Shown: in pieces, positions 1-57,163 of the stretch | Layout of the letters: each line of letters starts with the position of its first letter | How positions within the stretch are numbered: the stretch's first letter is position 1 | NCBI GenBank assembly: GCA_028534125.1 | Contig: CM052816.1 | Span: forward strand, 79,858,001-79,922,000 | Source: Lama glama | Taxonomy: Eukaryota | DNA: 64,000 nt | Direction: 5' to 3' | Translations under genes and position numbers: made by a program | Notes under the pieces: model-generated | Databases searched by the model: none | Told to the model about the DNA's origin: nothing | The model's input: the letters and a program-made list of their open reading frames with translations, nothing else

Positions 1-10529
<10,529 letters not shown>

Positions 10530-11750: not shown

Positions 11751-11896
11751 TTTCCCCTTAATTTTTTAACTTTTTGGGGGAGGGAGTAATTAGGTTTATT
11801 TATTTATTTATTCTTAGAGGAGATACTCAGGATTGAGCCCAGGACCTCATGCATGTTAAGTATGTGCTCTAGCACTTGAGCTATATCCTCCCCTGC
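11751..11896 (-). mobile_element. tRNA-derived SINE (camelid Vic-1-like)
   Basis: A/B-box tRNA-like head, aaacctaattac body, A-rich tail; TSD aaaacaggttgactt (11736-11750) / aaaacaagttgactt (11897-11911). Confidence 0.85.
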
Positions 11897-12653: not shown

Positions 12654-12869
12654 TGATGAAGTACAGTATTTAGGGGGACAATTAAAATGTCTTAATGTTC
12701 ATAACCTTTGACCTGAGTCCTACTTATAGGAAACCACAAATACTGTACAAAATATAGGAATTGATGAAGTACAGTATTTAGGGGGACAATTAAAATGTCT
12801 TAATGTTCATAACTTTTGACCTGAGTCCTACTTATAGGAAACCACAAATACTGTACAAAATATAGGAAT
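12654..12869. repeat. 108-bp tandem duplication (2 copies, 1 mismatch)
   Basis: 12654-12761 equals 12762-12869 except C12706/T12814. Confidence 0.95.
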
Positions 12870-13848: not shown

Positions 13849-14118
13849 TCACTTTGCATTCCCACTGTTCACCTTCTGTTTCATTTTTCTTTGCCTTTTG
13901 TAAATCCTTTTCTTTCTTGCTTTCAAATTGACTTTTGGCTCTGGTTTTACCCACTGTATTTCTATCGGCTTTTCCTCAGCTGGTGTAACAAAAACATCTG
14001 CAGTGGGATCGTGGGGAAGAATAGTCTTTGGTTCCTTCTTTCTCAGTTTCTGCACGTCTTTCACTTGCTGTTTCTCTTTGTATTTTGCAGCTGTGATGGA
14101 TCTTATGATACGCCGATG
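13849..14118 (-). CDS. BRIX1: BRIX1 exon 10 (270 coding nt)
   Basis: HRRIIRSITAAKYKEKQQVKDVQKLRKKEPK...KVNSGNAK*. Confidence 0.95.
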   Translation of the reverse strand, partial: HRRIIRSITAAKYKEKQQVKDVQKLRKKEPKTILPHDPTADVFVTPAEEKPIEIQWVKPEPKVNLKARKKRIYKRQRKMKQKVNSGNAK

Positions 14119-17100
14119 CTAGAAACAAAACATTACAGGCATTTTTGAAATGAAAATAAGCATTTTATGTATGGCAAGGATATTCACTTATGAACCCTAT
14201 TTCCCTTCACATCGTGTCATTAAAGAAAAAAAAAGTAATTTGCAAGACTCTATGCAGCAAAATCCAAATTCAGTTTCATAGCTCACAGAACAGTAATTCC
14301 TTGACAGAATTATCTTGGCCAAGAGTTCTGAGACATTGAGGGGGGACTGAACAACAGAAACAGCTTACCATGTTTGGTGACTGGTAGTGAGGATTTTCAT
14401 ACAAAGTTGGTCCTCCAAAACTTCCCTGGAAAATCTTTATGAGATTTAAGACAAAACGAGGTCCTATTTCTACCAGAGCAGCATCTTCTTCTATGATCTT
14501 TAATAAAAAGGAAACATTTCATTTTGGTTTGATTATACCATTCCTAAAAGGTATATATATCGATTATGACCTCATTACAAACGTGCCTAAAAGAACTGAT
14601 AACCAATAAAATTTTTGTGGAAGTGAAACTTGGCAAGTGCAAAATCATCAATATTTTCTGAAATATAGTAGCTGTCATGGAAAAATATACATTTTTTTTT
14701 CAGTGTGTTCTTTCAAAATTGAGTCATTTCAATTTGGTCTGTATCTTGCTTCTACAATGCAAGTCTTCTTGAAAAAAACTGTGGTTAAGTGAATATTTAG
14801 AACTGCAACCACGATAACAAAATGTGATTTGCCTACGGGGCCCCCTTTCAAAATTTAAATCAACCCCTAAGTTGCTTTTATAAATCTAATTCAAATTAGA
14901 TTAAAAGGTATATAAAAGAATACATGGTAAAATTTATTTTTGAATGGCTACTGATTGTGGAATTAAGAGGCAACTTCTGAACTACAAATATTAATACTGT
15001 TGGTTAAGGTATGCCTGCCCTCAGAGGTTAAGGGGGTATGTTTAACTCCCACCGCAAGGTATCCAACATAACAGCACATGCAGCACTTCACAAGCTGTCT
15101 GAAATTTTGTCCTGCTGTTCTCCTCCACCTCACCACCTCTCTGCGCTTATTATCTTGCCAAACTCCTGCTTCACGATTTCCAGAATCACCTCTCCTCCTG
15201 AATGAGTCACTGTATGACTCACCTAATAGTTCTCACTGAATGCTTTCTCCGGGTTATGTTTTTCTACATCTTAACCTCACCCCTCCCCCAGTAGATTCTA
15301 ACCTCTTGGGAGAGAAACTTCTATTTTACTGAACATATAGTGGCTTGTTAGAAAACCCATACTCCACATCCGCTGATAGTCATGAACTTAAGCAGTAGTT
15401 ATTTACTACAAGTCTGTGGGGGAAAGAAACCCATTTAAAAGAAAGGATTTATCGTTTGCATTTTCTATGTCTATAAACATCACATACCCTAACTTATTTC
15501 AAAGTACAGTTAAAAGTTAATAAAGCTAACCTGAAAGTTCCGAAACCATATCCTGTTATCCAAAATGCTGAAAGTAAACACATGGTCCACAAATGGTTGG
15601 CTTTTGGGGTGATAGCGTGGTGTACTGAAGATCTAGTGAGAAAAAGGACACGTCAGTTCTGTATTCTATGACATTCCATGTGCGTTCTGATAGCTAAGTT
15701 TAAAGGAAGACATTCATTTATAGTATTTTACTAAAAACTGTTTCTAGGAAAGATATTTACCTGAATTAAGAGTTCTTTTAACAAAGCATAATGTGGTAAT
15801 TCATCAAAAGCCTGTAAAAAGAGAGTGAACGTGTTATTTGAAAATAGCAGTGTTTTGCTTAAAATTATTTTTGTGGGTTTTTTTATGTTAACTAAATTGA
15901 ATTATACAACTATATACACTAAAAAACAACCATGCAGAGTAAGAAAATGAGACCTTATACACTAAATTAGAAACTTACAGGGTCAAAAGACAAGAGGGGC
16001 CGAGAACCTTTCAAACAGTTTCCAGTCATCTTCAGCTCAGCTAGAGTATGAACTAGAAAAATTATAACAACAAAAATAGTTATACTTTGGCACAATTATC
16101 TGAAAAGATTACTTTCAATTTTCTCACAAAAAAATTTAAATTGAATCAACTTACTATTTTGAACAAGGAATTTAGCAGATGGTCCATGAGGTGAATTTGA
16201 AAGCCTAAAAAATATAAACGGTTTTCCAACTAATTAGAATTTAGAATGCAGTAAATGCTTACTATCGATGCAGTTTAAAAGGCACCATAATGTGCTCACA
16301 CATTCCCAAATATTACTACATTCTCTTACCACATATAGAGATCTTGTTTTTTCTTAGCTTCAAAATAGATACATTTATTGCAGTTTTTCATTTCACAAAC
16401 CTAAATGGAGCAAAGTACAGAAAACTGAAGTAGATGAGAAAAATAACTAAAGCAATTCAATGCAATTAATATTTAGATGCCTCCAAAAATACTTGAGCAG
16501 GCTAACAGGCGACAAAGGTCTAAATATAGGTAAATTTATTCACAGAAAGAAACGTTTAAGTTCCTCTTAGGTTTTCTGCCCAAGGTAAACTAGATGCTCT
16601 GCCCGCCTCTTTGGTGAAAGCAGCCACTCTTTTTGGCTAGCATTTCAAAGCCAACTGGCCTCACTTCTGATTACTGGGAGCCTCTTCTCACCATAGTCCT
16701 GTATATCGCACAAAGGACTACGAAGCAGTACCAAAAAAACTACAAAGACTAAAAACTGATGCCCCAGGGATAAAGCAGACTACAAATAGCCTGACCAAGG
16801 CAGGAAAATACAGTCCTTAGAGAACCTAAAACATCCTTTACAATACTTACTCTGATTTTTAACTCTCTAGCTTTTTGACTTTAAGCTCAAGAAATTGACA
16901 TTTCCCCCTCTTATCTGTACTACCATTTCTGCAATTGGTTCTGTAAAATTACTAAGGGATTGGTGAAAGGTTGAAGTATATAAAACCTATTTCAAGTTGA
17001 ATTAAACTTCAACATCTTGAGGGTTTACAAAGTCACAACTGAGAAATACACAAAAGCAACAAAGAAACTATGTCCTGTATTATTATAGGATTCACAAACT

Positions 17101-20100
17101 AATACATATAGTAATTATAAACTCTAAACTACTAAGACTTAAAAAATTCTTCAGTCCAATGCTCTATTTCTTACTATTTCTTAGAATAAACATAACAATG
17201 CTAAGTTGGCTGTTTTCCAATTCAGTTTCAGTTGCTGGAAACCCATACCCTGTTTATTTCTCATACCTTCATTTGAAATTATACTACTTGTCTAGGGACT
17301 GTCACCCCCATTAGAATGTAGTCTTCACGACAACAGGGACATTGTTATTTAAGCAGTTTCCATATAATAACGCCACAACACAGCAGAGCTTCAAAATTTT
17401 TTGCTAAAAGAATAATAGAAGCTTTCTAACAGCTACAGAGTTTTTTTTTTTAAACAATTCTTCTAGGTTTTAAAAAATCTGCTTAAAATGTAAGCTTAAT
17501 CTTCAACAATACTTTGCAAATTTAACCCACTACTAGTTTGCAACAACTTAAGAGCAACTATCACATACATCACTTTCAATACTGGCAAATACTATTCAAT
17601 TTGAGCTTTTTAAAATAATGAGCTTTCAATATGCTTTTTGAGAGAAGACAAACATAAGGATGATCAAGAAATAATATATCCTGAAGCCCTAAACTGTGAG
17701 AGATAGACAATGAGTTCTATAAAAATTTGGAAGGCAAATTATTAAAGTTAATAAAATTTGTCTGAGTATGTTAAAACAACTTAACTCATGGAACAACATT
17801 TTTTTAAACATTTTTTATTGATTTATAATCATTTTAGATTTTTCAAATGATTTTTAGTGTTCCAAAATATTTTGTTCCTAAATACAATGTCGCTAGAATA
17901 TTTTACTTTAATTACTTTCTAAAATTACCTCATTAATCACAAATAACTTATCTTTACGATCCATTTTAGTATCTAAAAAAAGAGAAAAAAGGCAAGTAAA
18001 CAAAAGATTTCAAAGCTACTTCAATCAAATCACACATGTTCTAGGAAATTATATTAAGTATTTTTATAATCTTCGGTTTAAATGAGATGTTACTATTCTT
18101 CAAAATGATTAGACCTAAAAACACATGACTTCTTTAAAAAATCTTGTTTTTTCAAATGTGAAAGTGAGTGATTAAATAACAGTTCTCAGGAATTATTAAG
18201 CTGTCAGCAGTGTTCCTCAGACTTTGTGTACAGGCCTCAGAGATACTGCCAGGTCAGGTCCCCAGACCACCACAATAAAGCAAATATCTTAATAAAGTAA
18301 GTCACATGAATTTTTTGGTTTCCCAGTGCATATGAAAGTTATGTTTACACTATACCGTAGTCTATTAAGTGTGCAACAGCATTATGTCAAAAAAATGTAA
18401 TACCTTAATTAAAAAATACTTTATTGCTAGAAAATGCTAACCATCATCTGAGCCCCAGGTGAGTCACAGTGGCTAACATCAAAAATCATTGATTGCAGAT
18501 CACAACAACAAATAAAACAATAATAAAAGTTTGAAATATTCCAAGAATTACCAAAATGTGACACACACACAAAAAGAAAGCAAATGTCATTCGAAAAATG
18601 GCGCCAATAGACTTGTTCCATGTAGGGTTCAATTTGTTTTAAAACGCAGTAACTAAAGTGCAATAAAATGGGCTTTGCCTGCATTCTATGAATCCTTTTC
18701 AAAAACAGAAAAATTTTCACAAACCACAAACTACGTTCTAGGACTCTGGTTCAAGGAGCACTCACTTAAGAAACAAAATAAATTAAAATTCTCTTAGTTT
18801 GTTTCAGAGATCTGAAGATGCAATAGCAGACCTCAATTTGAGGAACATTGGTCTAAAGAACTAAGTTATCACCTACAACTAAAATCAAAAGCACCTCCTA
18901 ACACAGGCACAAAAACAGTCTCATGACAGCACTGCCATGGTTCTAAACCCCATGACTTTCAGTTGCCTCTAAGATACCACATTGCTAAAAAGAATAGGCT
19001 GGCATTTAGGAGTAGGCTGAGCCCCAACTTAAAGGTGCTTGAAATCCTACTCCAGGTCCATTAAATTTTTAATAAGAACACGTTTTTTTTCTTTTTTCTT
19101 TTTTTTTAAATGCAGAAAGTAATTCATAGCAGTCCTGAAATATTTAGTTGGACAAACAAGTTCTCTGAGAACATTACAATGAAGGCATTCCTGGACCTTC
19201 AAGAAATGTTTTGCTAATTAGGATATCTGTTTAAGAAAGTGAAGAGAATGTTTAATGAGTTTTGCAAAAGATCCTAAAAAATATTAATTGGAAAAATCTT
19301 GGCACTGAACAGAGAAATGTCTGAGAAGTCATGGCTCTTTACCTGACAAGGCTGAACAAATAAAGTGTGACACAAAGTGAAAACACATCAGTAAGCAAGT
19401 TTATAAACACTAATTTTTAAGTATATACATATATATACGCACCTGCTTTAGAATGAGGCATTAACATTCTCAAGTCTTGCATTAAATGTCTTGTTCTGAA
19501 ATTTATTCCTCTGGAAGAAAAGATAAGAATCCGTTCCTTATTTTTCCACTTGCCCTAAAGGGGAAAAAAAAAAGAAGACTTCAAAATCTCATAGTGAAGC
19601 TACCTTGTTTATTTGTTTAAAGATAAAGCTTCCGAGTAGCGAGCCAAACAGTCCTGATTTTAACCTTTAAGTCAATCTCTCAGCAGCATTCTCTGACCCC
19701 ATTTGCAAGCCAAAAATGCTTTCCTTGTTTTCTTATCTTTTCGGTTTTTTCCCTTAATCTCTCCAATTCTTTCTCTTGATTCTAAAGATTCGTTCTTAGC
19801 CCTGTTTTACTTCTGATCTTTCCAGAACAGTTCTCACAACCATTTCCACAGCTTCAACTGCCAACTCTATAGAAAGGTAAGGAACTTTTTCTAGCCTAAT
19901 TTAACTTACCTCAAATTCAACTCTAGAATGCTAAAGCTTAAAATCCAGTAAATTTCCCTGCTGTTTATACTTCTGATGTCACCATCATTTCAGTCCCCCA
20001 TGCTCTGAATCTTCCACTTGCCCTTATCCTCTCATATCATAAGCACTAGGAAATGTCAATTTCTTTTCAACAACTCTTAATCCTTTCCTAGTGATACTGC

Positions 20101-21844
20101 CTTCTTTCAGATTCTTATAATCTCGTATCAATTGCCGATCTCCTAAATTTTAGTCTTCCCAGCTAGGAGCTCCTACCGTAGGTAAAGCAGACTAGCACCT
20201 GCTTAACTTTTTAAAGCATTGCTCCAATCACATCTTTACCTTCCAGGCTTTTCTAAACAAGGTCCAAAATGACACAGCTTAACACTGAATTCTAAAATAT
20301 TTATATTTCTACCTCACTATTGTCCCAAATCGACCCCACACTTTAGCCAATTTGGCTGTATTTTTTTAAACTTTCAGCATTTCCTCTACTTCAGCACCTT
20401 TGTTCAGTTTTGTTTTGTTTTTCTCTCTCTCCCTTGTATTGTTCTCTCTCATTTCTGAATATTGGAATTTTGCCCTTACCTTGGGATGCAGCTCAAAGGC
20501 TACATAAATTCTTCCTGATCTCTTACTTGGGTATCCCAGAGTAAAAGCAATCTTCATTTTCTGTACTTAAGTAGAATTTTTTATATTATGACTCAGATCA
20601 TAAACACTATCATATTTCTATCCTTCTAGTTCCTAAGGGGAAAAGTGAGAGCAGTAACATCCACTGAAAATCTACTGGAAGTCCAGCTTATTCGTCACAA
20701 AAAGTAAATCACATTTTCTTCCTCTTAATTTGCAGAAAAAAGCTCAAAAAACATTTCCCTATTAATTAACAGCAGGGCTAGCATTCAAGCTCATCTTTCA
20801 TTCCTCAGAGCTAACTCCTTTCCCAGTGCTTGCCACCCCACCACAGCACAAAGGGTCATTTATCTATCACTCACTACGTAGTAGAGATCTACTCTAAGCT
20901 GGGGAGATACAGAAATTAGTCAAACGCAGTTCTTGTCTCCACAGTCTTTGATCTAGCTTAACGAGCTCTCAGTTGAATGAAAGATCCAACAACTTGGGTT
21001 CACCTTCTTTTGAATAAAAACCATCAACTTATATATGAGTAGTTTCCTTCTAAAAGCCAACCATTTTAAGAGGCAGTGATCAAGTTCTAGTTTTGCAATT
21101 CCAAAACAGGGGAAACCTAACCTTTTACAGTGACTGGCACGATAAAACTTTGTCGAATACAAGTAAAGCTCATACTGTCTACTTCAGCTTTCGTTATCCC
21201 ATGACAGTTAAAGATCAAACAAGTCAAAATCACAGTCCCAAGACCAGCAACTTTTTAAAGGACCGCATTACAAGCTTCAGTATCCCTAACTGACCTTAGC
21301 TAACTATGGCTGAATATGGGAATATTAATACCTGGAAGGGGTATAGTCAATAGCTAGAAGTAACTTTAGGGAAACGAACTTCTCTCCAACAACCACCCAA
21401 CAAAACGTGGAACGACTAGAAGACGAAACACTGGAACTAGTCCCCTTAATTCCCTTCTCTGTGAGCCGCGTAAGAGCTCTGACGACCGGCCAGTTGCTCA
21501 GCCGACCGCCTCCAGGAGGGCGGCCACGTGCACGAGGAGAAGATGTAAACGCAGCACGGGTCCCGCCGGGAGAGCTGAGACTGAGCTCCCACAACAACCC
21601 AGCATCTCGGGAACCCGCAGAGCCGTTATCAGGTAGGTAGTCCCAAAGAAGGCCCGTGGAGCCGAGGCCGCAGAGCCCCCTCTACCTTGCAAACCGGGCC
21701 TGGGATACGATCTCTCTCTTCCCCTTCCGCCTTCTCTGCTACGTCGCTGGCCTTAGCAGGCGGCTTGGCATCTTTTTCGGTTCTTTTTAGCTTTTTTGCC
21801 TGACCCGCTGGGCCTCCACGCCGTTTCCTCTTGGTCGCCGCCAT
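13849..21844 (-). CDS. BRIX1: Ribosome biogenesis protein BRX1 homolog, 353 aa; join complement(21686-21844,19443-19554,17929-17972,16330-16400,16155-16204,15979-16052,15761-15811,15531-15632,14369-14497,13849-14118)
   Basis: Ten GT-AG exons sum to 1062 nt in one frame; MAATKRKRR N-terminus, Brix-domain motifs HGPSAKF and EIGPRFVL, TGA at 13851-13849. Confidence 0.97.
14369..14497 (-). CDS. BRIX1: BRIX1 exon 9 (129 nt)
   Basis: IIEEDAALVEIGPRFVLNLIKIFQGSFGGPTLYENPHYQSPNM. Confidence 0.95.
15531..15632 (-). CDS. BRIX1: BRIX1 exon 8 (102 nt)
   Basis: IFSTPRYHPKSQPFVDHVFTFSILDNRIWFRNFQ. Confidence 0.95.
15761..15811 (-). CDS. BRIX1: BRIX1 exon 7 (51 nt)
   Basis: AFDELPHYALLKELLIQ. Confidence 0.94.
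15979..16052 (-). CDS. BRIX1: BRIX1 exon 6 (74 nt)
   Basis: (I)HTLAELKMTGNCLKGSRPLLSFDP. Confidence 0.94.
16155..16204 (-). CDS. BRIX1: BRIX1 exon 5 (50 nt)
   Basis: (W)LSNSPHGPSAKFLVQN. Confidence 0.94.
16330..16400 (-). CDS. BRIX1: BRIX1 exon 4 (71 nt)
   Basis: VCEMKNCNKCIYFEAKKKQDLYM. Confidence 0.94.
17929..17972 (-). CDS. BRIX1: BRIX1 exon 3 (44 nt)
   Basis: (D)TKMDRKDKLFVINE. Confidence 0.94.
18231..18681 (-). mobile_element. Internally deleted Tigger1-type TcMar DNA transposon
   Basis: Left end ta|caggc...agata...cagaccaccacaataaagc and right end caataaaatg...gcctg match Tigger1 termini as I recall them. Confidence 0.75.
19443..19554 (-). CDS. BRIX1: BRIX1 exon 2 (112 nt)
   Basis: GKWKNKERILIFSSRGINFRTRHLMQDLRMLMPHSKA. 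Confidence 0.95.
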
Positions 21845-22800
21845 CTTGCTGCGCGCCTACGCTCTGGGCCTTCCTTCCGGCTCTGCCGCTCGCTCCGCAT
21901 TCCCATCTCTATGGTCCCGGGGCTTCGCTCGGCGGTCCTCCTACAGCTCTATGGTGCCTGTTTCCCGTCTCTGTGGTACTGCACGCTCGACTCTCTAGGC
22001 CTCGTCTATCTCAGTGGTGACGGGGGCGGAGGTGGCCGGCCGATCTGAAAAGAGTGGCGGGAGTCTCCCACTTTCTCTCCAATTTCCCGGGAGCTGTTTC
22101 CGGGACGCGGCGTAGAGGTAGGGTTTGGGCTCGGGCTCTCCGGATCCCGAGACTAGTAACGCGTGCGGTCCCGCGGCGGGCTGGTGAGCCGTGCTGTCGG
22201 GGAGGACTGGGGCCTGCCTCCCATCGGCTGTTCTGTTAGGGGCAAATTTGGTGACAAAGGACAACTCCAAGCCGTCTCCTGGGATGCGTAGCCTCAGTTT
22301 GTCGTGAGGAACTGGCCCGAGTGAATGGCCGTGTTAGGAGCGTATTTTCATCCTTCACATCCTTTAGTGTGTTACTATTCGCATACTAGCGACGAGGAAA
22401 CCGCAGCTTAGAGACATCAGTAGTTTCCCCCAGAGTTAGACAGTTACGTGGCAGAGGTGGAGTTCGGTCCCTGGTCGGCCGGGTTCTACCATCATCGTCC
22501 AGGCCTTTTGCACTTGGCTCCGCGCGGGTTGAGATCGCGGGCCTCGCCGGCATTGACGCGGAGTTTTATTGTCAAATCTCAGGTGTTTCGCTACCCGCGG
22601 GCGCGGGTGTTGGCACCGGGAGCATCCCCGGGAGCCGAATGCGCCGTGGACCATGCCCCTCCTAACCCAGCCGATCCCAGATGAGAGTGATTACAGTTTA
22701 GTGGCCAGCCTTGACAACGTCAGGAATCTCTCCACTATCTTGAAGGCCATTCATTTCCGAGAACATGCCACGTGTTTCGCTACTAAGAATGGAATCAAGG
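21400..22800. promoter_or_regulatory. CpG island, BRIX1/RAD1 bidirectional promoter
   Basis: CpG-dense; divergent start codons at 21844 (-) and 22653 (+); GC box GGGGGCGGAG at about 22022; YY1 motif at 21837-21848. Confidence 0.9.
21686..21844 (-). CDS. BRIX1: BRIX1 exon 1 (159 coding nt)
   Basis: MAATKRKRRGGPAGQAKKLKRTEKDAKPPAKASDVAEKAEGEERDRIPGPVCK; gtagag donor. Confidence 0.95.
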
Positions 22801-22847
22801 TGACAGTGGAAAACGCAAAATGTGTGCAAGCAAATGCTTTTATTCAG
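22653..22847 (+). CDS. RAD1: RAD1 first coding exon (exon 2; 195 coding nt)
   Basis: ACCATGC start; ...KCVQANAFIQ|gtatgg. Confidence 0.95.
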
Positions 22848-25800
22848 GTATGGAAGTAAGGCACCTTTAAGCCTGTGACATGTGATATTTTCACCGAGGT
22901 CAGTGAATAACGAACGTTTTACCAAACGTCATTTAAGTTGTAGAACATAATGTCATTATTTGAATTCTTTTCCCATCTTGTTTTACAGAGATAATGGTTA
23001 ATAATAATGTCTAAAATATATTAAGCCAATGTATAGGCCAGTGTGAGGTCTGCGCAGGTCCCAACCTGTCTGTTAGAGGGTTTGTCTTCTGGGAGGATAA
23101 GGTCGTCTTCTCCTTTGATAAAACCTCTCATATAGTTGGCTTTGGCATCTTCCAGGAGGGAGGAGTTCAGAGATTGAGGCCTCCTGTGTTTGGGTTTTCA
23201 GCTGAGATAGAGAAGACAGTGGTTATGACCAGGAAGTCCAGAGTAGGGTAGAGCTCCCTTCAGGGCTTGCCACTGTTACCCAAGCCTGGGCTTCATAGAA
23301 GTCATAGAAGTGGATTCCTTAATAATAGTAAAATAATAACTCCCCCTCCAAATAAAAATAAAGTATAGGTCTGGCACTCACTCTGCTGAGTGTTTTATAT
23401 GTTTATATATTTAATTCATTTAATCATCACAGTAGTCTTACAAGGTGGGTTCTGTTATTATTCCCACTTTACATACGTGAAAACGAAGACAGTTTTAGTG
23501 GATTTGTCAGTGGTCCTACAGCTGGCAAGTGGCTAAGTTGGGATGAAGACCTCAGAATATTTGTTTCCATAATAACACTTTCCCACTATCTCCCTATTAT
23601 TAAAAAATTTTTCCTTGCATTGGTTATAATCTACTTGTTCTTACAATGTATTATTTGTATGATTCAGATAGGATTTCAGATTAATTCAGCATTTTTGGGG
23701 AACACCTAAGTGCACTGTATGACCTTAGGTATAGAGGGATAACTAAGACATGGTTCCTGTCCTCAGAAGAAATTGAAAACCAGTATCACTCATTTATTGT
23801 CTAATTGTTTGGCAATTTTCCAAATGACTTTAGCTGAAGTGATGGGCACGAAAAGGAGACAAGAGAGTCACGTGGGGGATAGTTTAGATCCAAGCTAGAT
23901 GAAGGATCCTTATAAAGTTTGGCATGGAATCGAAATCACTCTTACACCTTTAACTATTGAGTAGTGTTCTAATGGATCACAGTTGGAAAAGCATAAGATG
24001 TTTTGATTGGTAATCAGAAATTACTTTAATGGGTTTAGCACAATATTGTTATTTTAAAACCATTTAAAAGGGAACTCTAGAGCCTTAGTGCTAAGTTTTC
24101 ATTCTTTCATGTACGTACATTTTCACATTTACTTTTTTTCATAGGCTGGAATATTTCAAGAATTTACAGTTCAAGAAGAGTCTGTTACTTTTCGAATTAA
24201 TTTAACCGTCCTCTTAGACTGTTTATCTATTTTTGGATCAAGTCCTACTCCAGGTGAACCATTTTATTATTATTATAACAACATAAAAGCATTATACAGA
24301 ATGGTCAGAAAAATACAGAAAAAGTTATTAGAATATAAGTAATATAAACATTTCTTTAGAAAATTAATTGCTGATTCATTTTTCATTTGCCACAGTCATG
24401 GATTCTGATTTTTCATAATATTAACAGAACATATGCTTGTGGTTCTTTTCATATTTGCAAAAGTATTTACACCATCCATTTTTTTAAATTTACAAAGCTT
24501 TTAAGATTTTAAATTTAAACTAATCAAAAGAAGACTTTGAACATGTCTTAAATATCTTTAACATTGGGAAATATATTTTAATTGCTTCTTTTTTCTGACT
24601 TGTCCAGAATTACAGTTGGCGGCAGAGAAAAATGGAAACCAATTCTCCTGACTCCCAGTTTACTGTGTTCAAAATTTGTTTGCTTTTTTTCTTTAAGCCC
24701 TGTTTATGAATTATGTTTATTTTCCTAAATGCTTTCCTTTAAAATATTGATGTATTTTTAGGAATAGTGACTTTGGTTGCTATGGGTATAAAACTACAAG
24801 GAATCCCAAGACAAATGATTTCTTTTTCACAGGAAAGGAATCTGGATATTACTAGGGTAAATTCAGTTATGGTTCTCTAGAAAATATACTTTAATTTTGT
24901 ACTGACAATTCCATTATTATTAGAATTGGCTAAAATTATAAATTTTTTTAATGCCGTGTTCCCCAGCTGGTTTTTCATAAAAGCCTCTGCCTTCCCTCAT
25001 TCCTCACTGTGGTTCTCCATCCAGTAAGAGACAGGAGCTGGAAGGTCCTGTCATATTACTCCTCTAACGGCTTGCAGTGGTAAAACCCTGCCCACCATTA
25101 ACCACTCTTTTTCTCCCAATTAGATCTTAAAATTTGAGGCAATGTAAAGACTGTCTCCCAATAGAAAAGGTTGGAGGGATCCTTATCACAGTGAATACAG
25201 TGAGGTTATAGGAAGACAGTATCGAAGCAATCCACTGTTGCACAAACTGAACCTTCAGCCATGGCAGAGCCTACTCTGCAGCAGTTCTATGACACACAGT
25301 ATTGGACCACGTAGATTGTCCAGCCTGACGTTGTATATATAGAATCAACAAGCTATTTCGCAGGTGGTTTTTGGCAACCTGGAAAATGAGTTTCAAAGAG
25401 TTACATTACGTTTTGTTCTGGTTCCCCAATTTCTTAAAGTTATTTTTGGAATTGTCGACACACAGCTGTCATCAGGGAAGATGTGATCCCTTCTTATAAG
25501 GAGCTACATACATACATGCTAGAAATTGGACAGAATAAAATACTCTTGAGGAGGGAGTTTTTTGCATTATTTGAGGAGGAGCTGAACCCAGAGCTATAAA
25601 GCCAGGCCCAAAGTGTGATTTCTTTCCGTCGCAGGGACTTTAACTGCACTTCGGATGTGTTACCAAGGCTACGGTTACCCTTTGATGCTATTTCTGGAAG
25701 AAGGTGGAGTGGTGACAGTCTGTAAAATCAATACACAGGAGCCTGAAGAGACCCTGGACTTTGATTTCTGCAGCACCAATGTTATTAATAAAATTATTCT

Positions 25801-28742
25801 GCAGTCAGAGGGGCTCCGTGAAGCATTTTCCGAATTGGATATGACGAGTGAGGTCCTACAGATCACCATGTCTCCAGATAAGCCTTATTTCAGGTACTTG
25901 ACAGCAGTTGATTCCATCTCCCTACTTACACATTTGCTTAAGATGCAGACCTTTTATTATCCAGGTTATTAGAATCTTGAGAACTTTAGAGAGCTTTTAC
26001 CTTAGCTCGTACTAAGGTCAGGACCCTTAGGACCCAGGAAGATTAGCTCACTCTCCAAAGCTTCACAGGTAGTGTTGGTTATTCTGCAGTCAGAGGGGCT
26101 CCGTGAAGCATTTTCCGAATTGGATATGACGAGCGAGGTCCTACAGATCACCATGTCTCCAGATAAGCCTTATTTCAGGTACTTGACAGCAGTTGATTCC
26201 GTCTCCCTACTTACACATTTGCTTAAGATGCAGACCTTTTATTATCTAGGTTATTAGAATCTTGAGAACTTTAGAGAGCTTTTACCTTAGCTCATACTAA
26301 GGTCAGGACCCTTAGGACCCAGGAAGATTAGCTCACTCTCCAAAGCTTCACAGGTAGTGTTGGTTTCTAGGAGAGTAGCCTCGTCTCCAAATTCGCAAAC
26401 TAGTGGTCTTTTCATTGTTGTCCTCCTTACTATTGTGGGTCAGGGGGCATCGTGAGGAAAACTGGGCTTAAACTTTTGGAAAAGGTGTTCATGTTACATG
26501 GCATCTCTTTCTTTCCTTTCAAGTTAGTACAGAATACCAAAGGAAGTAGGTATTTTCTAGACATGGTTCATTCACTAAGTATTTACTGATCACCTCCTGT
26601 GTGCATATTTGCCTTATTAAGCACAACAGGAAGGAACAGCTTAAAATCAAGGTGAAGAGGAAATATGTGAAACACCTCAGAGGGAACAAAATTACACGCC
26701 GTCAAATTCTAAAATAATATACATAGATCCCCTCAGGAACCAATAGATGAGTCCTTAGGGAGGAATGGTCAGGATGAGCATCCTAGGAGAGGGCAGTTTT
26801 CTGCAGGAATACATGTTAAAAGCTGTCAAGCTGCTTCTCATATTTTGGCCCAATAAATTATGAAGGGGCAGAACTCTTTTCAGGATTAGAATCAATTTGG
26901 AGAGAGAATTTAAATATTTCTTCTCTTTTGAAATATTTCATAATATTAAAGAGTAGGAAGTTAAATACACATGATATGAGAGGTGTAACTGTTCTTTTTG
27001 TATGTGCTATGGAAGAACGGCAGGCCCTTCTCATGGCTTAGGCAGTTAAAAATTTGGCTCAAGATTGGTTAAAATGTTAACCAAAAATAGAAATCAATGG
27101 AACCCTGCTTAAGCAGTGATATGAATTAAGATTCACTGAAACAAGAGTGTTCCAGAGGATCCCCATATTAAAGATCTCAGCATGGGTAACCAGTTGGGTC
27201 ATGGTATCTGTCATCTCCCCTGTGGGAAACTGGTGGTGGGGAACTGGAAGTTGAAATACTGTTTCTGGATGTGTTAAATGTGAGGCACCTGTGACACTAG
27301 GCAGTAGCTGGACATACAGATCTAGAGCTCAGGAGAGAGTCTAGCCCAGAAATTTAGATTTGGGAACCATCGTCATGGCTGGGCATGGACGACTTGGCTC
27401 AGAGAAATAGGTTACGTTGTAAGAGAGAAAAGATGGGTCCTAGGGGAAATCAGCACAGAGGTCTTCTCTCTTGTGCGAGTAGAGTGCTCATCTGCCTCTT
27501 ACCCCTATAGCAAGTGGTGAGTGCTTGCACGTTAAGTAAACATACAAACATTTATAAATTGCCTACAAACTGCTGGTATTACCAAGTGAGGAAAACCATA
27601 AAACAGCCTGATTGCAGTCTGGGATACAGAAAAGCCATAACTGCTTAGTGTGGCAGTAAAGATAGGGAACAGGACCCCAGGCTGGCAGCTGACTTAGACC
27701 AGGGTCTTCGTCACTCGTCAGCTCTCCTGTTACATACTTCTCATTTAAGGGTGAGGAAAGGACAATGTCAGAGAAGAATTAAGGTAATGAAATTGAAGCA
27801 GCCCACCCCTCACCAATTCCTTTTGTGACTGATTTTTTTTCAAAGCTGTTTACTAGTTGCCAGCTCTCCTATACTCCCACAGCATCCTACAGGTATCTTC
27901 ATTATGTAATTGTTACAGTGCATTTTCAGCATGTGTTTACATACCTGTTTCATTCAACAGAATGAGCTTTATTAAGCAAGTGTTGTCTTTATTTGGATTC
28001 TAATGTGGCTTATTGTTGGACCAATGAATAAATGAGTTGCTCGTTTTCTACTACAGGTTATCTACTTTTGGGAATGCAGGAAGCTCACACCTTGACTATC
28101 CCAAAGATTCTGATTTGATGGAATCATTTCAGTGTACTCAGACCCAGGTCAACAGGTCAGTTCTTACTATAAAGGCTGTCATTGGTGATGAAGGGGAGGT
28201 TAACTACCACATTTCTGTTAAATTTTTTAAAACTTTAAATGTGTTGATAAAAGTGTAGCATTTAAAAAGTAAATAGTGGACCAGAAATAGACACAACATT
28301 GTAAACTGATTATAATTCAGTCAATCAATCAACCAATCAATCAGTAAACAGTAGGTTGCTGGTTTACTTGGGGATTTTGGATTGTAATAAGGGATGAAAT
28401 TTTTAAAATGAGAAAATACTAGTAAATTAGACAAGGATTTGATTTTATTCTTATATTTGCTACTTGGTAGTTGTTGGCTAATTTTTGTCCTTTCTTTGGA
28501 ATTATGAGCACTGCTTAAAGTGTGTCCAAATAACAGCCTTTTATTTATTCTTCTACAGATACAAGATTTCTTTACTGAAGCCCTCTACAAAGGCATTAGT
28601 CCTGTCTTGTAAGGTGTCTATTCGCACAGATAACCGAGGATTCCTCTCATTACAGTATATGATTAGAAATGAAGACGGACAGATATGTTTTGTGGAATAT
28701 TACTGCTGTCCTGATGAAGAAGTTCCTGAGTCTGAGTCTTAA
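22653..28742 (+). CDS. RAD1: Cell cycle checkpoint protein RAD1 (9-1-1 clamp subunit), 281 aa; join(22653-22847,24145-24253,25635-25893,28057-28155,28559-28742)
   Basis: Five GT-AG coding exons sum to 846 nt in one frame; MPLLTQ...SLVASLDNVRNLSTILKAIHF...FVEYYCCPDEEVPESES*. A non-coding first exon probably ends near 22183 (gtgag donor), with the next acceptor at 22582. Confidence 0.97.
23375..23580. mobile_element. MIR SINE relic
   Basis: MIR core-like 'ttattattcccactttacatacgtgaaaacgaag...cagctggcaagtggc'. Confidence 0.6.
24145..24253 (+). CDS. RAD1: RAD1 exon 3 (109 nt)
   Basis: AGIFQEFTVQEESVTFRINLTVLLDCLSIFGSSPTP. Confidence 0.95.
25635..25893 (+). CDS. RAD1: RAD1 exon 4 (259 nt)
   Basis: (G)TLTALRMCYQGYGYPLMLFLEEGG...QITMSPDKPYF(R). 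Confidence 0.95.
25796..26365 (+). repeat. 285-bp tandem duplication covering the last 98 nt of RAD1 exon 4, its donor and 187 nt of intron
   Basis: 25796-26080 vs 26081-26365 with four substitutions (25849/26134, 25916/26201, 25962/26247, 26009/26294) and TT microhomology at the junction. Confidence 0.95.
28057..28155 (+). CDS. RAD1: RAD1 exon 5 (99 nt)
   Basis: (R)LSTFGNAGSSHLDYPKDSDLMESFQCTQTQVN(R). Confidence 0.95.
28281..28342 (+). mobile_element. Extremely 5'-truncated L1 3' end with (TCAA)n tail
   Basis: ccagaaatagacacaacattgtaaactgattata; the same 3' end recurs at 41196-41240; degenerate TSD agtaaatagtgg/agtaaacagtag. Confidence 0.6.
28559..28742 (+). CDS. RAD1: RAD1 last coding exon (184 nt to TAA)
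   Basis: (R)YKISLLKPSTKALVLSCKVSIRTDNRGFLSLQYMIRNEDGQICFVEYYCCPDEEVPESES*. Confidence 0.95.
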
Positions 28743-34715: not shown

Positions 34716-35498
34716 CTATAACACTGTCCTTCCACAGGGTGAGAAGCTCTAGCACACTTTTGAGATGTTAACCAGGAAATGTTTTCCCCACACCAGCGGA
34801 GTGGTCGCTTTTCACAGTTACTAGCCCCTGTCTCATCTGGCTTCACTGCCAATGGTGCAGCTAGAAGGTAATAGTGAAAGCCGAGGTTTCAGTACAAATA
34901 AAAATAGCTGTTATTTATTACCTGTTACTGTGGGGCCAGGCACCCTGCTCACCACGTTACAGACGTGATCTCATTTATTGTCACAGCAACACTAAGAGAT
35001 AAGTACTGTTCTCATCCCCATCCTGTGGATGAGACCAGGATGACACACAGCCAGGAGCGGTGGTTCTGGGGTTTGAGCCCAGGCTTGTCTGTCTGCAGAC
35101 CCAGAGCTCTTAACCTCCATGAATCATAAAGAAAAAGTAGTTCATAAGGACGTGTTGACGTCATGTTTCCATGATCAGATAAAATAGTTCATTGGTGAGA
35201 TAGTCATTGCTCATGAAGAATTTATTATGTCCTAAAGTGGGGCTCACATTCTTTACCAAACTACAAAAGTGTTCTTGTATCCTCGGTTCAGGCATGTGCT
35301 GTATATTCTTTTTGCTTTAAAGAAAACCAAGCCTAAGGTATTTTCTCTTTGGCTTTAAAGATAGTATAAGGTTTTATTTGCCAAAATGTAAATCACTATT
35401 TCAAAAAGAATTCAAGTATATATAAATACAGTGGCTTTTAAAAAACTAATTTGTTTCCAACATGCCAATAGGGAGGTTTAGTATCTAAAAAGTCCTGA

Positions 35499-35620
35499 TG
35501 AGGGCAGGGTGTAGTTCAGTGGTAGAGCATGTGCTTAGCATTCATGAGGTCATGGGTTCAATCCCCAGTACCTCCACTAAAAAAATGAATACACTTAATT
35601 ACCTCCTGCTACAAAAAAAA
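35499..35620 (+). mobile_element. tRNA-derived SINE (Vic-1-like)
   Basis: gtagttcagtggtagagc...gggttcaatcccc head, poly(A) tail, exact TSD AAAAAGTCCTGA (35487-35498/35621-35632). Confidence 0.88.
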
Positions 35621-38600
35621 AAAAAGTCCTGAGAAGTCTCAGGAAATCAGCCTGTGTCACTTCATTTAATCTATTTTTTTTTCCCTGAATTGAGTTCTGC
35701 CACAGAGTCTTTCTCATTCCTCCATCCCTTGAAATCAGCATTGATTGCAATACCTGTTAGGAAACGCTACCCCATCCAGCAGCCAGAGACCACTTACCAT
35801 TCCTTCCATACACTGCCCCCGTCACGCGCCTGTGCCTTTGCATAGAGAGTATCTTCCTGGAATGGCCTCTCTTCTCCATCTGGATGAACCGTTACTCACC
35901 CTTCAAGAAACAACTCAAGTGTAACCTTCTCTGTGAAGTCTTCCCCAGCATTCTTAGGTTTTCTCTCCTTTCTGCTTTTACTGCACTGAGACTTCTACAG
36001 AACTTACATTTCACATTTTCATTATTTTTCATGTTGGTCTCTTGCACTAGATTGTGGTCCCCTTAAGAGTAATGACCATGTTTGTTTATCTTATTTTATT
36101 ACCACCTGCAGCTCTAACTACCTAGCACTTAGTAGGTGCTCACCAGATAAATTTGCTGAAGGAATGTTGAAGATGAGGAAAGAGAGGCTCAGAATGGTAA
36201 GCAACTTATGGTCACATAGCTACATCATAGCAGAATTGGGACTCACACACAGGTGCCTTGACTCCAAGTATCCTGCCCTTTGCACTATGCCTGAATAGCA
36301 AATTCATGGCAGAATTTAACTACTTCCCCACCCTACCCACGGCAGACAGTACTAATAAGTCAGGCTCCACCAAGCCCAGGCTTTTGCTCTGGAAACTCAA
36401 GCATCACTGAAGGAAACCACTAACAGAGCGGGCCCGTGAGATGAAATATACTTGCTCTCCTTGCACTATTCCGTGCTGTTCCCTCCTATCGATACATTTT
36501 GCGGGCACGGCAGAGAGGCTGTTGATTATAGAGTCCCCCCACCCACTGCTCTGCTAAAGACAAGGTGCCCTGAGCTGGCTCTGTGTGGCTTAGCAGCCTC
36601 TGTTCCCCTTCAGGGAGACCCTAGGGTGGAGAGCTAAAGGCAAGAATTGGGGCTCCTGGCACTGAACGTCCAGGGAGTGTTGTCACTGGGTTTCTGGAGG
36701 AGGCGGGGTAGGAAGCACGAGAGCACGTCGGGCAGCCAGCAGAGTTCCAGGACATCTGGGACTGATTATTCCAGTGAGATGCTCCAGCAAAGAGGACAAC
36801 TTTTGTACTGGGTTTTTTGTGGGTTTGGGAGTATTTGTTTGTTTGTTTGTTTGTTTTTTAACATCCGGGCTTTGGCAGTTGCTGAGGGATAAGGTAAGGA
36901 CTAGTTTCAGGGAAAGGAAAACCTTTAGTGACTCAACTTCTACAGCAGAGTCTCATCAAAACTCTTCCCCTTACGCGTACTTCCTTGGCAGGTCTAGGTC
37001 TCACTGCCATTTACAGAGAGAAGGACGTCTCCGAGAACCAGAAGAAACTCCCACGACCCAGGGTCTGAACTGGGTTATGCCAGCGTCTCCCAACTCCTCT
37101 CTTTCTTCCCCGATTCTTTTCAAATCAGGAACAAGGAACAGTAAAAGACTGAGAGGGAAAAGCAGCCTCAGGCTACTGAGGAAATGGATACACTGCAGCT
37201 ATTCTGAAGTGTCTCTTTTAAATACAAGCTGAGTGGAAATTTTGTTCCACTTTTGAGGAAGCATGCATTTCTTGTCTGAAATTACATGTTTTGTTCTTTT
37301 AGTTTCACTGCTATTACCTTCAGAGTACAAAATGTACTTTAGATGTATTCAGAGATTCAAATTCTCAATCTAATTCTCGAACATACAAACATACTGTAAT
37401 ATTGCCTAACAATTATCCCTGATTTCAAATATTCTGACCTGTTGCCCTGGAAGCAAAGGGCCATGTGCTGCAGAAGAGGGCAGGAAGGGTGTTTTGCTAG
37501 CATTTTTTGAGTACTCTGCCAGGCACCGTCCTATGCATGTTATATACATTATTTTATTTAAAACTCACAAAAACTCCATGTGATACACTATTTGTCTGCA
37601 TTTTAGTGATGAAGAAACCAAGACTCAGAGGTTAAGTGATTTTCCCAAGGTCACATATTTAGTAAGTGGCAGAGGTAGGTTAAGATGACAGGGCTGACTC
37701 CAGCAATACATACTTTTTACCCATCACTCTTAATATAAAATAATAATAGTCGGGGTGATATACAGAGCTTCTTATCTAAACATTCTGGCCTATTACCTCC
37801 AGCATCTCAGAAAGATAAGTCTTTCTGTTATTTTATTCTTATGCCAACATTCACTGAGTACAGAAGACCTGCCAGGCCCTGATCTAATGTGTATGTACGC
37901 TCATTAATTCTCAGAAAACCCACTTTTTGAGGAAGGTCCTGTTATTTTACTGATGAATAAACAGAGGCTTAGGGAGGTTAAGGGAACTTCACCTCAGTCA
38001 GAGAGCTGAGTGTTGGAGCCTGATTTAAAATCCACAGTCTGCCTTCAGAGGGTAAGCTGTGTAGCCTATAGCAAGCACATTCTGGAGTTAGGGAGCCCTG
38101 GGTTCAAGTCCCAGCTCTGCCTCCTCTTGGGTAATCTGACTTGAACATATTAGTCCTGAGTTCCCCTGTATGTCAGATGAGGCGCTGGGGACCTGCCTGC
38201 TGACAGGTGTCCCTATAAAAGTTCTCAAATTCACCAATGTCAGAATCCCTATTATATCGTGAAAAGCAGTGCATTTTTAAACTATGACAGATCTGGGATC
38301 AGATTTATCACACTTACCAGCTAGATGTTAAACAAGATACTTAACCTTTCTGAGTCTCTGTTTCATCACCTGAACATGAAAGATAAGAACAGCTACCAAA
38401 TAATGTTATTTGTGAGTCAGAAGTAGTATATGTGCTGTAAAGTGCCAGGGAACTGGAAGGAGTTCTACATTATAGTTACCATTAATATTGTCATGGTTAT
38501 TGAGTAAGAAAATACGCTTTCATGTTTGCCAGTAGGCAGGGAGCAGAGTTCCCCATATACCTCCTACCGTGGGCATCACAGAGAGAGACTTGAGAACGTG

Positions 38601-44869: not shown

Positions 44870-47800
44870 CTCTTCTCACACTGTGTTTACAGGCCCAGGA
44901 GCAAATGTAACAATACAAGCCGGTATTCACCTTCCTTAGCAGCTGAATTGCCTTTCTGAGCTCTCCTTTGGCAAAGCAGATCCTGCCCATGTTAAAAAAA
45001 GTTTCAGCCACTTTTTCACTATAGTCACCATAACTGATGACCTGAGACTTCAGGGACGCCTTTAGCAGTCTGTAAGCCTCCTAAGGGGATAAAAAATACA
45101 TAGTTTTAAAATTAGCCTGGCAACTGTGAAGGAGCGTGCGGGCTGCTTTCTGTAGGAGGCATTCTACCCCACACTGGCGTAACCCACTAAGATCAGTGGT
45201 GATGCATAACCTAAGTAATGTGCCCACGAAGAGTTAAAGCTCCAAGCCTATAATTAATACAAATGAATTAGCTATTATTATGAATTAACTTTATGACTAC
45301 CCTAAGAGAGAGGGATATTATTATAGTCTTCCTATAGAAGAAGGAATGGAGACTAATAAAGGGTAGGGATCTTCCTTAAGGTCACACAGCCTATAGTTAG
45401 CAGGTCAGGATTCAAACCAGTCTCAATTCCATAGAACTTGCACTCTTTTTTTTTTTTTTAATTATTATGTTTTAAAATTTCAAACCTGCAGAAAAACTGA
45501 AATAGAAGAATGAATACATATATTTTTACCTAAATTCACCAATGGCTACTAGCATTTTGCCACATTTACTTTATTGCATTTTCTCTTTAAAAAGTTACAT
45601 ACATATATAAAATATATATATTATACAGATAACATTTTTATATATATACATAAATGTATATACATATGTTCTTATTGAAAATAATCTGTACTTAAGATAC
45701 TTTACCACTAAATATTTAAGCATGCTATCTTCTTAGAACAAGAACATCTTTCCATGTAACTACAAGAACATTATCACTCTCAAAAATTTATATATTGATG
45801 TCATATTAATATATCCTCTGTATTAGAATTTCTCAATTATCCAATAATGTTCTTTATAACTTAAAAAAACTAATATCCAATCAAGAGTCATATATTGAAT
45901 TTAGTTTTCACAATTCTTTAGTCTTTTAAAATCTGTAACAGTTCTTCCCTTTGTGTCTTTCATAATATTGGTATTTTTTTTAAGTCCAGGCCAGTTGTCT
46001 TTCAGCGCAGCTCTGACTCCTAACTACTTACTATATCGCATGTGAGTCAGAGAAAAATTGAGTATACGTTGGAAGTTATTCCTGGAACAACACTGCTTGT
46101 AATTCATTGGATTTCCCAATGTGCTACCTTTAGAGAGAGTGAAGAGATGTAGTGACTGCTGGCACCCTCACCCTCTGCCTGCATCAGCTGTGCTGACATT
46201 TATAAACAGAACATTTCTCTGGAGCTGGGTGAACATGCAAGCAGCATCCTTCATATGTGGCACGTCAGCACAAACATAAAAACGATGTCAACTGTTGCTT
46301 TCCAGGAAACATTGCCAGTAATTGCCAATAACCTGGATTCAGACCCAGTCCAGCTGGCCCTAGAGGCTGAGTGCTTTACACTGTGCTGTACATTCTGAGT
46401 GACTTTACTCTGAAATAACTGAACAGGGTTTGCCCTGCCAAAGGTGGCAGCATTGGAGAGCTGCAGGACTTCCCTCTCTGGCTTCAGATTGTGTCTCCTG
46501 ACATGGAACATGCCATTTATTGGTGCTGAGTAAATATGGACAAATTCAAACAACAACAAAAACCTTGCATTTTTCAAAATAGGAAAACATTCATATAATT
46601 AAATTATTTTCCTATTTTTTTCAGTGTACAAGCCTTTTGCCTCCTTGGTTAAGTTTATTTAGAAGTATTTTTTTTTGATACTACTGTAAATGGGAGGGTT
46701 TTCTTAATTTTGTTTTCAGATTGTTCATTGTTAGTGTATAGAAATGCAACTGATTCTTTTGTATGTTGATTTTGTATCCTAAATTTTGTTTTGTATCTTG
46801 CAATTTGTTTATTAGTTTTAGCAGGTTTGTTTGTTTGTTTTGGTATGGAATCTTTAGGGTTTTCTACATATAACATCATGTAATCTGCAAAGAGAATTAA
46901 TTATATTTCTTCTTTTCCTATTTGGATGCCTTTTTGCATTCATGCTGAACTCAGTACACGAAGTTCAGGTCAGAAGTTTTTGCGTTTTTTTTAATATTTT
47001 TTTTTCTGAGGGAAGGTAATTAGGTTTATTATCATTTATTTTTTTTTTAATGGAGGTACCAGGGATTGAACCCATGACCTCATGCACCCTAAGCATATAC
47101 TCTACCACTGAGCTATACACCCTCCCCGCTCAGGTCACAAGTTTTTGAGTAAAAGCTTAGACTCACGTGACTTCTAAGTAAAAAGGTCAGCAATCAAAAG
47201 CATTTTCTGGATTTTTTGCAAACAAAAAATTGGCTAATAAAGAACTGGAGACCAGAAGCTGAGAAGGAAAAAATATATCAAGAGAAAAAGGAAACCACCA
47301 GCTATATCCAAAGGTGAAAGCCCATTCTGACTTAAAATATTAAATTTACAGAACCAGAGATTGTATGTGTCCTGGATTTGAAGAACCTCATGTTTCAAGA
47401 TACAAGAAAAATACTTTTTTCTTTTTTCACTAATATTGCAAGTGGCAGCAGCCCTATTTTTATCGCTGGCTTTACCTGAACCGTCTCTGAGCTCCAATTT
47501 CTGAATTATGAGATGAAAAAGATGTCCTGATCTAATAAACAATCTAGCAATTAGATTTATGAATCGATGATATTTACCTGTTTTCCCCCATTTTCGATAA
47601 GCCATTTACAAAAGTCTTCAATGGTCGTCAGTGTTTCATAACCCTCTGGGCCCAATGTTGTTTGATACGCAGTGATACTTTTTCTAAAATATATCTCAAC
47701 AGCACCTGCAAAAAAGTGAAACAATTATTGCAGGCAAGCTGTAATTACTTAGACATTTTTTCATGCTTAAAGCTCCTGGAATTCAAGCTGGCTTGAGAGA

Positions 47801-55312: not shown

Positions 55313-57163
55313 CTGAACTAGAGGAGGAACACTTTGGAAAGAGAAAGAAGAGAGTAAGTCCTGGACACAAAAACCAGGCTGGCTCTCTCTGCAAGCAGCA
55401 GACTCCCTGTCTTCAGAGCAGCATTCTTCAACATTCCTGCATTGTGTGAAGTTAACAGCCTAGGACTTCCGATTTACTGCAGTGCCTTTTCTTCAGTATC
55501 AGGCTGTTCTTACATACACTGCTGGATGGCACGGCACCTATGCTGTGACATAGGAAATCCAATATTGTCGTGGTTTTGACTTTGGAAGATTCCTGAAGGC
55601 CAGGCATGGTTCTCATTTGAGGAGGGAAAAGGTGAATTTAACTAGCAGTTTGAGAGAAGTTTCAAGTACCTGATACATAAAAGTGCCTACACTGTTTTCA
55701 TTATGAGAGACTTAACATTCCTTTGTTTGTTTTGTTCTCCTCAGACATGTGTCAAGCGAAACACCCTCTTGTTAGTTTAACCTTAGACTTGGAAATACAA
55801 CCAGCTAGACTAGTTCAAAGGACGAGTGACAGCATTACACCAAAATACCATAAATTTTCATTTAAAAAGCCCTTTGCGTTTGCTAAAACTTAAGTTCAGT
55901 TGCCCCTATGGCTTTTCTCGCTCAGAGTGGACTCACTCAGCTAGCCACCTCTTCCCAGCACAGTCAGGGTGAGGGAGGCCGGGGGTGTGGGTGGGGGGTG
56001 TTGCCTTAGGTCATGCAGCACAGCAGACATGCGCCCCTAAGAAGCATCCTCTGTCTGGGTCGTTTGAGGTTGAGGAAGGTCTCTTGTGTGGGTCTGGAGG
56101 AAAACCAATCCCACCTTCTGTTCTGAGGGAACTGGTCCTGGGGCCAAACAAGGCCACCTGGCCGGGGCTCCAGCCAGCCCACTTACCTGCTGCAGGTACT
56201 GGATGGCCTGCTCATGGTTCCTCCTCAGCTGCTCAATCTGAGCCATTTCCTCATATAGAATGACCAAATCTGACGTCCTATCACCCTTGGCAGCAATAAC
56301 ATTGCCAATGGCCTTTTCAAAGTACGCCAGGGCTAAGTTTAGCCTGCGGTTGACCAAGGAGGCTCTGGAAAAAAAGGGATGAGGACCGAAAGTCACAGAG
56401 AAGTCACTTGCTTTGCAGACACAAAAGGAACTGATTCTAAGAACTAAACAATTTGGACTTCATAGGTCAATCATCTGAGTGGCTGGCTCAAAATCCAGCC
56501 TTGCTGAAAACGAAATCCTATTAACTTGTATTTTACCAACCAGATTCCACTGACAACCATTCATCAAGCCCATTAGTATATCATGCTATAGTCTAAATTT
56601 TATAAGAAAGCAAATGGAAAAAAAAAGGCTTCTAGTAATTCATAAGATGGGATAATTTACCCATAAAACAGATTTTTCTAAAATTAAAATAAAATTTTAT
56701 TACCTCTGTCTCCTCTTTTAGGCCAAAGCAAAGGTTTTCCTTTATTTTGTTTGATTAAGTTTAGTTTTTCCCTCCTCAGTTAAAAATAAGAGAGGATAGA
56801 CAAGACAATGTGAATATCTCCCCCAAAGGGGTGGTTAAATAAATTACGGCATGTCACATGATGAAATACTTCAGACATTAAACATCATGTTTTCTTTTTA
56901 GACTAACTCATATGGGGAGAAACTTAAAATGTGCTAAGTTTTATCTAGATTTGTATTTTCTGCGTGTGGTGGCAGGGAGGTGATTAGGTTTATTGAATTA
57001 TGTTTTTAATGGATGTACTGGTCTTGAACCCAGGACCTCACGCATGCTGAGCACGCACTCTACCACTGAGCTATCCTTTCCCAAACAAAATGTGCTCAGC
57101 TTTAAAAATGTTATAAAGCTGTATTTAAAATATGATCCTGGCACGTATATATTATGTGTGTAT

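Follow-up and report, generated by a model that had tools for sequence, protein, structure and literature searches.

The end of one RAD1 coding exon, together with its splice donor, stands twice in tandem in the llama (Lama glama) assembly. An earlier note on this DNA read the second copy as a candidate poison exon in a DNA-damage checkpoint gene. Does the doubling belong to the animal or to the assembly and, if it is real, would it alter the RAD1 message? We considered both points within the window, which is the whole 64 kb stretch of DNA analysed.

The gene is RAD1, as had been proposed. Its coding span lies on the plus strand at 22653–28742, with five coding exons (22653–22847, 24145–24253, 25635–25893, 28057–28155 and 28559–28742) placed by GT–AG boundaries and translation. 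The frame of 281 amino acids is intact, and Pfam PF02144 (Rad1) matches all three of the RAD1 pieces submitted. We retain the label exon 4 for 25635–25893, following the numbering of the earlier note. Residues 1–22 are identical in the Camelus ferus RAD1-like protein P0063; the N-terminus (22653–22847) is one residue shorter than the human one within these first 22, a feature common to the C. ferus protein. The 99 nt exon at 28057–28155 is skipped in frame, joining exon 4 to the last exon, in ten of the best 120 of 207 vertebrate RAD1 proteins, which are then of about 248 residues. This skip is a commonly annotated isoform and is unrelated to the duplication.

RAD1 stands head-to-head with a minus-strand gene at about 13850–21850 and is also neighboured by a gene with a DnaJ-domain first exon at 10029–10124, minus strand. 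From synteny we take these to be BRIX1 and DNAJC21, respectively. A GC-rich tandem repeat of 22–23 bp in about four copies (10407–10495) lies in a CpG island upstream of the start of the DnaJ-domain gene. A short interspersed repeat at 11761–11893 has three further copies in the window at 75–78% identity (35494–35623, 46996–47134 and 56971–57074); it resembles the camelid tRNA-derived SINE.

The layout of the duplication was reproduced as originally described. Positions 25794–26080 match 26079–26365 over 287 nt, consisting of a period of 285 plus a 2 nt TT microhomology, with four mismatches; TRF (period 285, 2.0 copies, score 1116) and self-BLAST (E = 7e-142) agree. The unit comprises the terminal 98 nt of exon 4, which ends at 25893, and 187 nt of intron. 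Copy 1 (25796–26080, plus strand) carries the native donor CAG/GTACTT at 25891–25899, the proximal site and the predicted default. Copy 2 (26081–26365, plus strand) runs on into the ancestral right flank, and by sequence comparison it repeats the identical donor 9-mer at 26176–26184, after 26178, as a putative pseudo-site. The copies differ at 25849T/26134C, 25916A/26201G, 25962C/26247T and 26009G/26294A, giving the allele series T-A-C-G and C-G-T-A. All four differences are transitions; three of the four involve a CpG present in one of the copies, and the sole exonic difference is synonymous (AGT/AGC). At the junction (26079–26080) there is the TT and there are no inserted bases; the N count is zero there and throughout the window. 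The TT is at chance level (P = 0.16), and we dropped it as a signal of a repair mechanism. For 71 nt stretches of DNA around the three breakpoints the folding energies were −5.4, −7.0 and −10.2 kcal/mol; uncontrolled by shuffling, these values were given no weight. The assembly text carries the doubling, which is confirmed for the assembly and not for the copy number of the animal.

To place the copies amongst their relatives, the junction-spanning open frame 26006–26254 served as a protein query, and 173 proteins were examined: 53 matches of 45–146 residues and the best 120 of 207 matches of 147–2000 residues. Two copies, the junction or the poison-tail peptides occur in none of the 173 homologous proteins (the longer ones being the best 120 of 207), a set in which NMD isoforms would rarely be annotated. 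One named camelid is present, a 210-residue prediction with a normal join of exon 4 to exon 5, and camelid genomic read-throughs are absent from the set, so that the result does not extend to camelids. Several mammalian contigs are translated through the intron, and the three whose tails were inspected (P0001, P0054 and P0055) cross one unit into the true right flank. One copy is therefore the ancestral state. Five metagenome matches to a 19 nt intronic motif were discarded as chance, since all five align over the motif alone.

Compared by eye with both copies, the outgroup peptides have A at 25916 in three of three informative cases and C at 25962 in two of three; at 26009/26294 they have A in two of two readable cases, with indels nearby. 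On these states both copies carry derived alleles, and of the three differences at CpG sites at least two are probably CpG gains and not decay, bearing in mind that CpGs are lost in distant outgroups as well. The outgroup peptides do not support CpG decay as the chief source of the differences. The placement of three of four differences at CpG sites (P = 0.0003 under uniform placement) rules out sequencing error as their origin. The earlier argument from CpG bias thus holds in so far as the differences are biological, but it changes with the probable CpG gains. The presence of derived alleles on each copy is equally compatible with a pair of paralogues and with a pair of alleles.

Nor would the duplication be recent, as had been claimed. 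With a mutation rate of 1.5–2.2e-9 per site per year, an assumed range, the divergence of the copies corresponds to 2.0–3.8 My (CI 0.5–10), so that a real duplication would be roughly 2–4 My old. This is close to the Lama–Vicugna split at 2–3 Mya; the domestic forms are admixed (5.5% in llama, 36% in alpaca; PMC7331169). Such an age fits an old pair of paralogues or introgressed or deeply coalescing alleles, not a recent allele.

What could the second copy do to splicing? The canonical 25893 to 28057 splice is unaltered by the duplication. Inclusion of a putative frameshifting exon of 89 nt (26090–26178, plus strand) is predicted to bring in a TGA at 26127–26129, giving a 200-residue product with the stop 148 nt upstream of the last junction. 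Use of the distal donor is predicted to reach a TAG at 25970–25972, giving 213 residues with the stop 305 nt upstream of that junction. Translation reproduced both stops where they had been placed, and both are NMD-eligible. The claim that either route makes an NMD substrate is accordingly correct for the two routes named, but incomplete, having overlooked the acceptors at 26017, 26038 and 26047. These remain in frame to the normal stop, with predicted products of 335, 328 and 325 residues, respectively; the putative cassette from 26038 (26038–26178, plus strand) is 141 nt long. An 83-codon open frame in the RAD1 frame crosses the junction (26006–26254, plus strand) and might cause gene-prediction software to call an additional exon in frame.

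Splice sites were scored with a crude position weight matrix built on general consensus frequencies, not with MaxEntScan. On this scale the junction lifts the acceptor at 26090 from −2.0 to 2.7, the native acceptors scoring 5.4–9.0. Amongst 337 intronic AGs 17 score as high or higher, which places 26090 in the top 5%. The in-frame acceptor at 26038 scores 2.9. The native exon 4 donor scores 2.4, below the other three native RAD1 donors that were scored. Branch-point-like motifs lie at −25 and −40 from 26090, and its AG-exclusion zone is 15 nt; three of the native acceptors have just 18–20 nt. The site had been presented as a new acceptor. The AG and the preceding 9 nt already lie inside native exon 4, and it is the sequence farther upstream that is new. 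The support for the poison-exon reading consists entirely of frame arithmetic. By one definition poison exons are conserved, alternatively spliced and endowed with an NMD-eligible premature stop (PMC8819188). The predicted 89 nt exon has such a stop; as to conservation, all three inspected outgroup read-through peptides are single-copy.

On balance we lean, with somewhat better than even confidence, towards a heterotype false duplication, that is, an assembly artefact and not a true duplication of 285 bp; this weighing is a matter of judgement rather than computation. The sequenced animal would be heterozygous for two diverged intron 4 haplotypes (T-A-C-G and C-G-T-A), and the assembly would have set their overlapping ends head to tail with no N gap between them. 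Each chromosome would then have one exon 4 donor, AGT/AGC would be a synonymous SNP, and there would be neither an extra donor nor a poison exon. A haplotype-duplication artefact had been raised earlier as a caveat, and we retain it as the leading explanation because a second near-exact tandem duplication lies 13 kb away and because the differences lie far from the unit ends. This second case, 108 bp in two copies (12654–12869) with one C/T difference (12706/12814) and no microhomology, lies past the final coding exon of the putative BRIX1 (minus strand, about 13850–21850) and is possibly the same kind of assembly signature. The two are the only two-copy near-exact tandem duplications in the 64 kb (period 40–2000, at least 85% match), and each carries at least one difference between its copies. 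The lone difference in the 108 bp unit is central (52 nt to the left, 55 nt to the right), and those of the 285 bp unit stop 53–55 and 69–71 nt short of its ends; differences at least 52 nt from the ends of both units have P = 0.006 under random placement, the statistic being post hoc. False duplications cluster in regions of high heterozygosity, and faulty gap filling can join them (PMC9516828). The match of the copy divergence to the Lama–Vicugna split, together with the admixture of the domestic forms (PMC7331169), lends further support, as does the absence of doubled, junction or poison peptides from the 173 proteins, of which one is a named camelid. Against an artefact, the copies abut without an N and none lies nearby, whereas false duplications are most often separated by gaps, with read-depth gaps from incorrect gap filling also allowed (PMC9516828). 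Four differences in 287 nt (1.4%) are also improbable between ordinary alleles (P = 0.012 with pi = 0.003 and 0.32 with pi = 0.01), and would suit deeply diverged haplotypes alone. The geometry of the 285 bp unit is not that of a plain de Bruijn bubble: the flanks are unequal (53–55 versus 69–71 nt), and a 66 nt identical stretch inside it would rejoin the graph at k near 55. The clean, gap-free junction, the divergence above ordinary heterozygosity and the restriction to transitions would suit a genuine tandem duplication, roughly 2–4 My old and functionally silent, a possibility that we take seriously but consider less likely than not. The first donor would then define exon 4 at 259 nt, not 544 nt, with copy 2 spliced out within an intron of 2163 nt and the second donor an unused pseudo-site. 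The first donor should outcompete the second if the duplication is real, since in F7, LMNB2 and PDGF reiterated identical donors are normally ignored for the most upstream one (PMC1557585). The candidate acceptor at 26090 is weak. In mice the loss of Rad1 is embryonic lethal and heterozygotes are tumour-prone (PMC2864214), so a strong RAD1 hypomorph is unlikely to have survived for long, and a duplication that has persisted for so long should be close to neutral. The neighbouring duplication and the central placement of the differences tell against a silent duplication, as does the absence of the junction from the protein and metagenome matches found, though these sets include scarcely any camelid material for the locus.

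Two further readings also require the duplication to be real. In one, the frameshifting exon 26090–26178 is used, or the distal donor is used appreciably, and part of the RAD1 mRNA is directed to NMD as a hypomorph or a regulated switch. The raised acceptor score, the branch-point-like motifs at −25 and −40, a donor and exonic context copied intact, an upstream intron piece of sufficient length (196 nt), the NMD-eligible stop and the use of extra donors in CBS intron 13 and the 6-16 gene (PMC1557585) speak for it. We nevertheless consider it improbable: the acceptor is well under all four native ones and equalled or bettered by other intronic AGs, its AG-exclusion zone is of 15 nt, the exon is not conserved in the inspected outgroup peptides, and none of the 173 proteins carries it, which is weak evidence for an isoform of this kind. 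The evolutionary form of the same idea, in which a duplication fixed in a South American camelid lineage 2–4 My ago would have made a cryptic exon 4 AG a working acceptor and so built an NMD-coupled exon, we likewise regard as unlikely. Fainter still is the prospect of an in-frame cassette from 26038 (or 26017 or 26047) to the donor at 26178, which would add 44–54 residues, amongst them a second copy of a 32-residue Rad1 segment. The frames are open to the normal stop and the 26038 acceptor is similar in score to 26090, but these acceptors are weak, with an AG close upstream, and a matching protein is found in none of the 173. Whether the doubling is artefact or real, the RAD1 protein is in all likelihood unchanged.

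Sequencing runs were tried as a discriminator of copy number and dropped. Amongst the 24 runs listed, 14 hold at least half of the 102 sampled words; their shares are 0.82–0.85 under five organism labels, none higher, and the runs with small shares were not used. The expected share is 0.854 for one copy, 0.881 for a carrier with SNP bubbles removed and 0.973 with both alleles retained. The best share, 0.85, fits either one copy or the bubble-removed carrier (P = 0.21 under the latter for at most 87 of the 102 words). Since the run contigs are simplified graphs (Logan preprint), the shares exclude only the case with both alleles retained.

The literature searched yielded no report on camelid RAD1 structure; structural-variant tables from camelid resequencing could bear on the matter. 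Titles and abstract openings amongst the literature matches listed mention no RAD1 poison exon, and nothing in the same literature directly parallels a short false duplication without a gap or the RAD1 splice outcome. If the doubling is an artefact, the assembly may contain short haplotype duplications, joined without a gap, that look like gained exons; the 64 kb has two candidates. If it is real and silent, it is another natural case of upstream-donor preference, as in F7 and CBS. Biological weight would attach to the locus only if the unproductive exon were true, given that the dose of RAD1 affects tumour susceptibility in mice (PMC2864214). A new NMD-coupled exon would then adjust how much is made of a checkpoint clamp subunit that is haploinsufficient; this would be exon birth by partial self-duplication in progress, and single-copy relatives would show the state before a poison exon arose, for comparison with the state after.

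Both leading explanations are of known kinds. Heterotype false duplications (Ko et al., 2022; PMC9516828) share with the RAD1 case adjacent near-identical copies, SNP-like differences and an exon gain that would be false; the RAD1 case differs in having no N gap and a length of only 285 bp. For the poison-exon model a close parallel is the NMD switch exon of ATM, a haplotype-dependent unproductive exon in a DNA-damage checkpoint gene, which the RAD1 exon would resemble. The ATM exon has been demonstrated by experiment and is under the control of U2AF, PUF60 and hnRNPA1 (PMC4702124), whereas the RAD1 exon is a prediction from sequence. In CBS c.844_845ins68 a short segment across an intron/exon junction is duplicated in tandem, and splicing removes it to give normal mRNA (PMC2630376). 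It differs from the RAD1 case in being 68 bp long, in doubling an exon start (intron 7/exon 8) and in being a proven polymorphism.

Also comparable are the repeats across exon–intron boundaries that reiterate a donor, known from the human F7 IVS7 37 bp VNTR, LMNB2, PDGF, CBS IVS13 and the 6-16 gene (PMC1557585). LMNB2 and PDGF, like F7, use the most upstream donor, while two additional sites come into use in CBS intron 13 and the 6-16 gene. As in these genes, the RAD1 unit in the assembly spans the end of an exon and repeats an identical donor downstream, and the F7-type default is the most upstream site. The F7-type repeats are many-copy minisatellites, whereas RAD1 has 2.0 copies of 285 bp. 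The RAD1 copy differs also in bringing with it 98 exonic nucleotides with an internal AG, and could in principle become an exon of its own.
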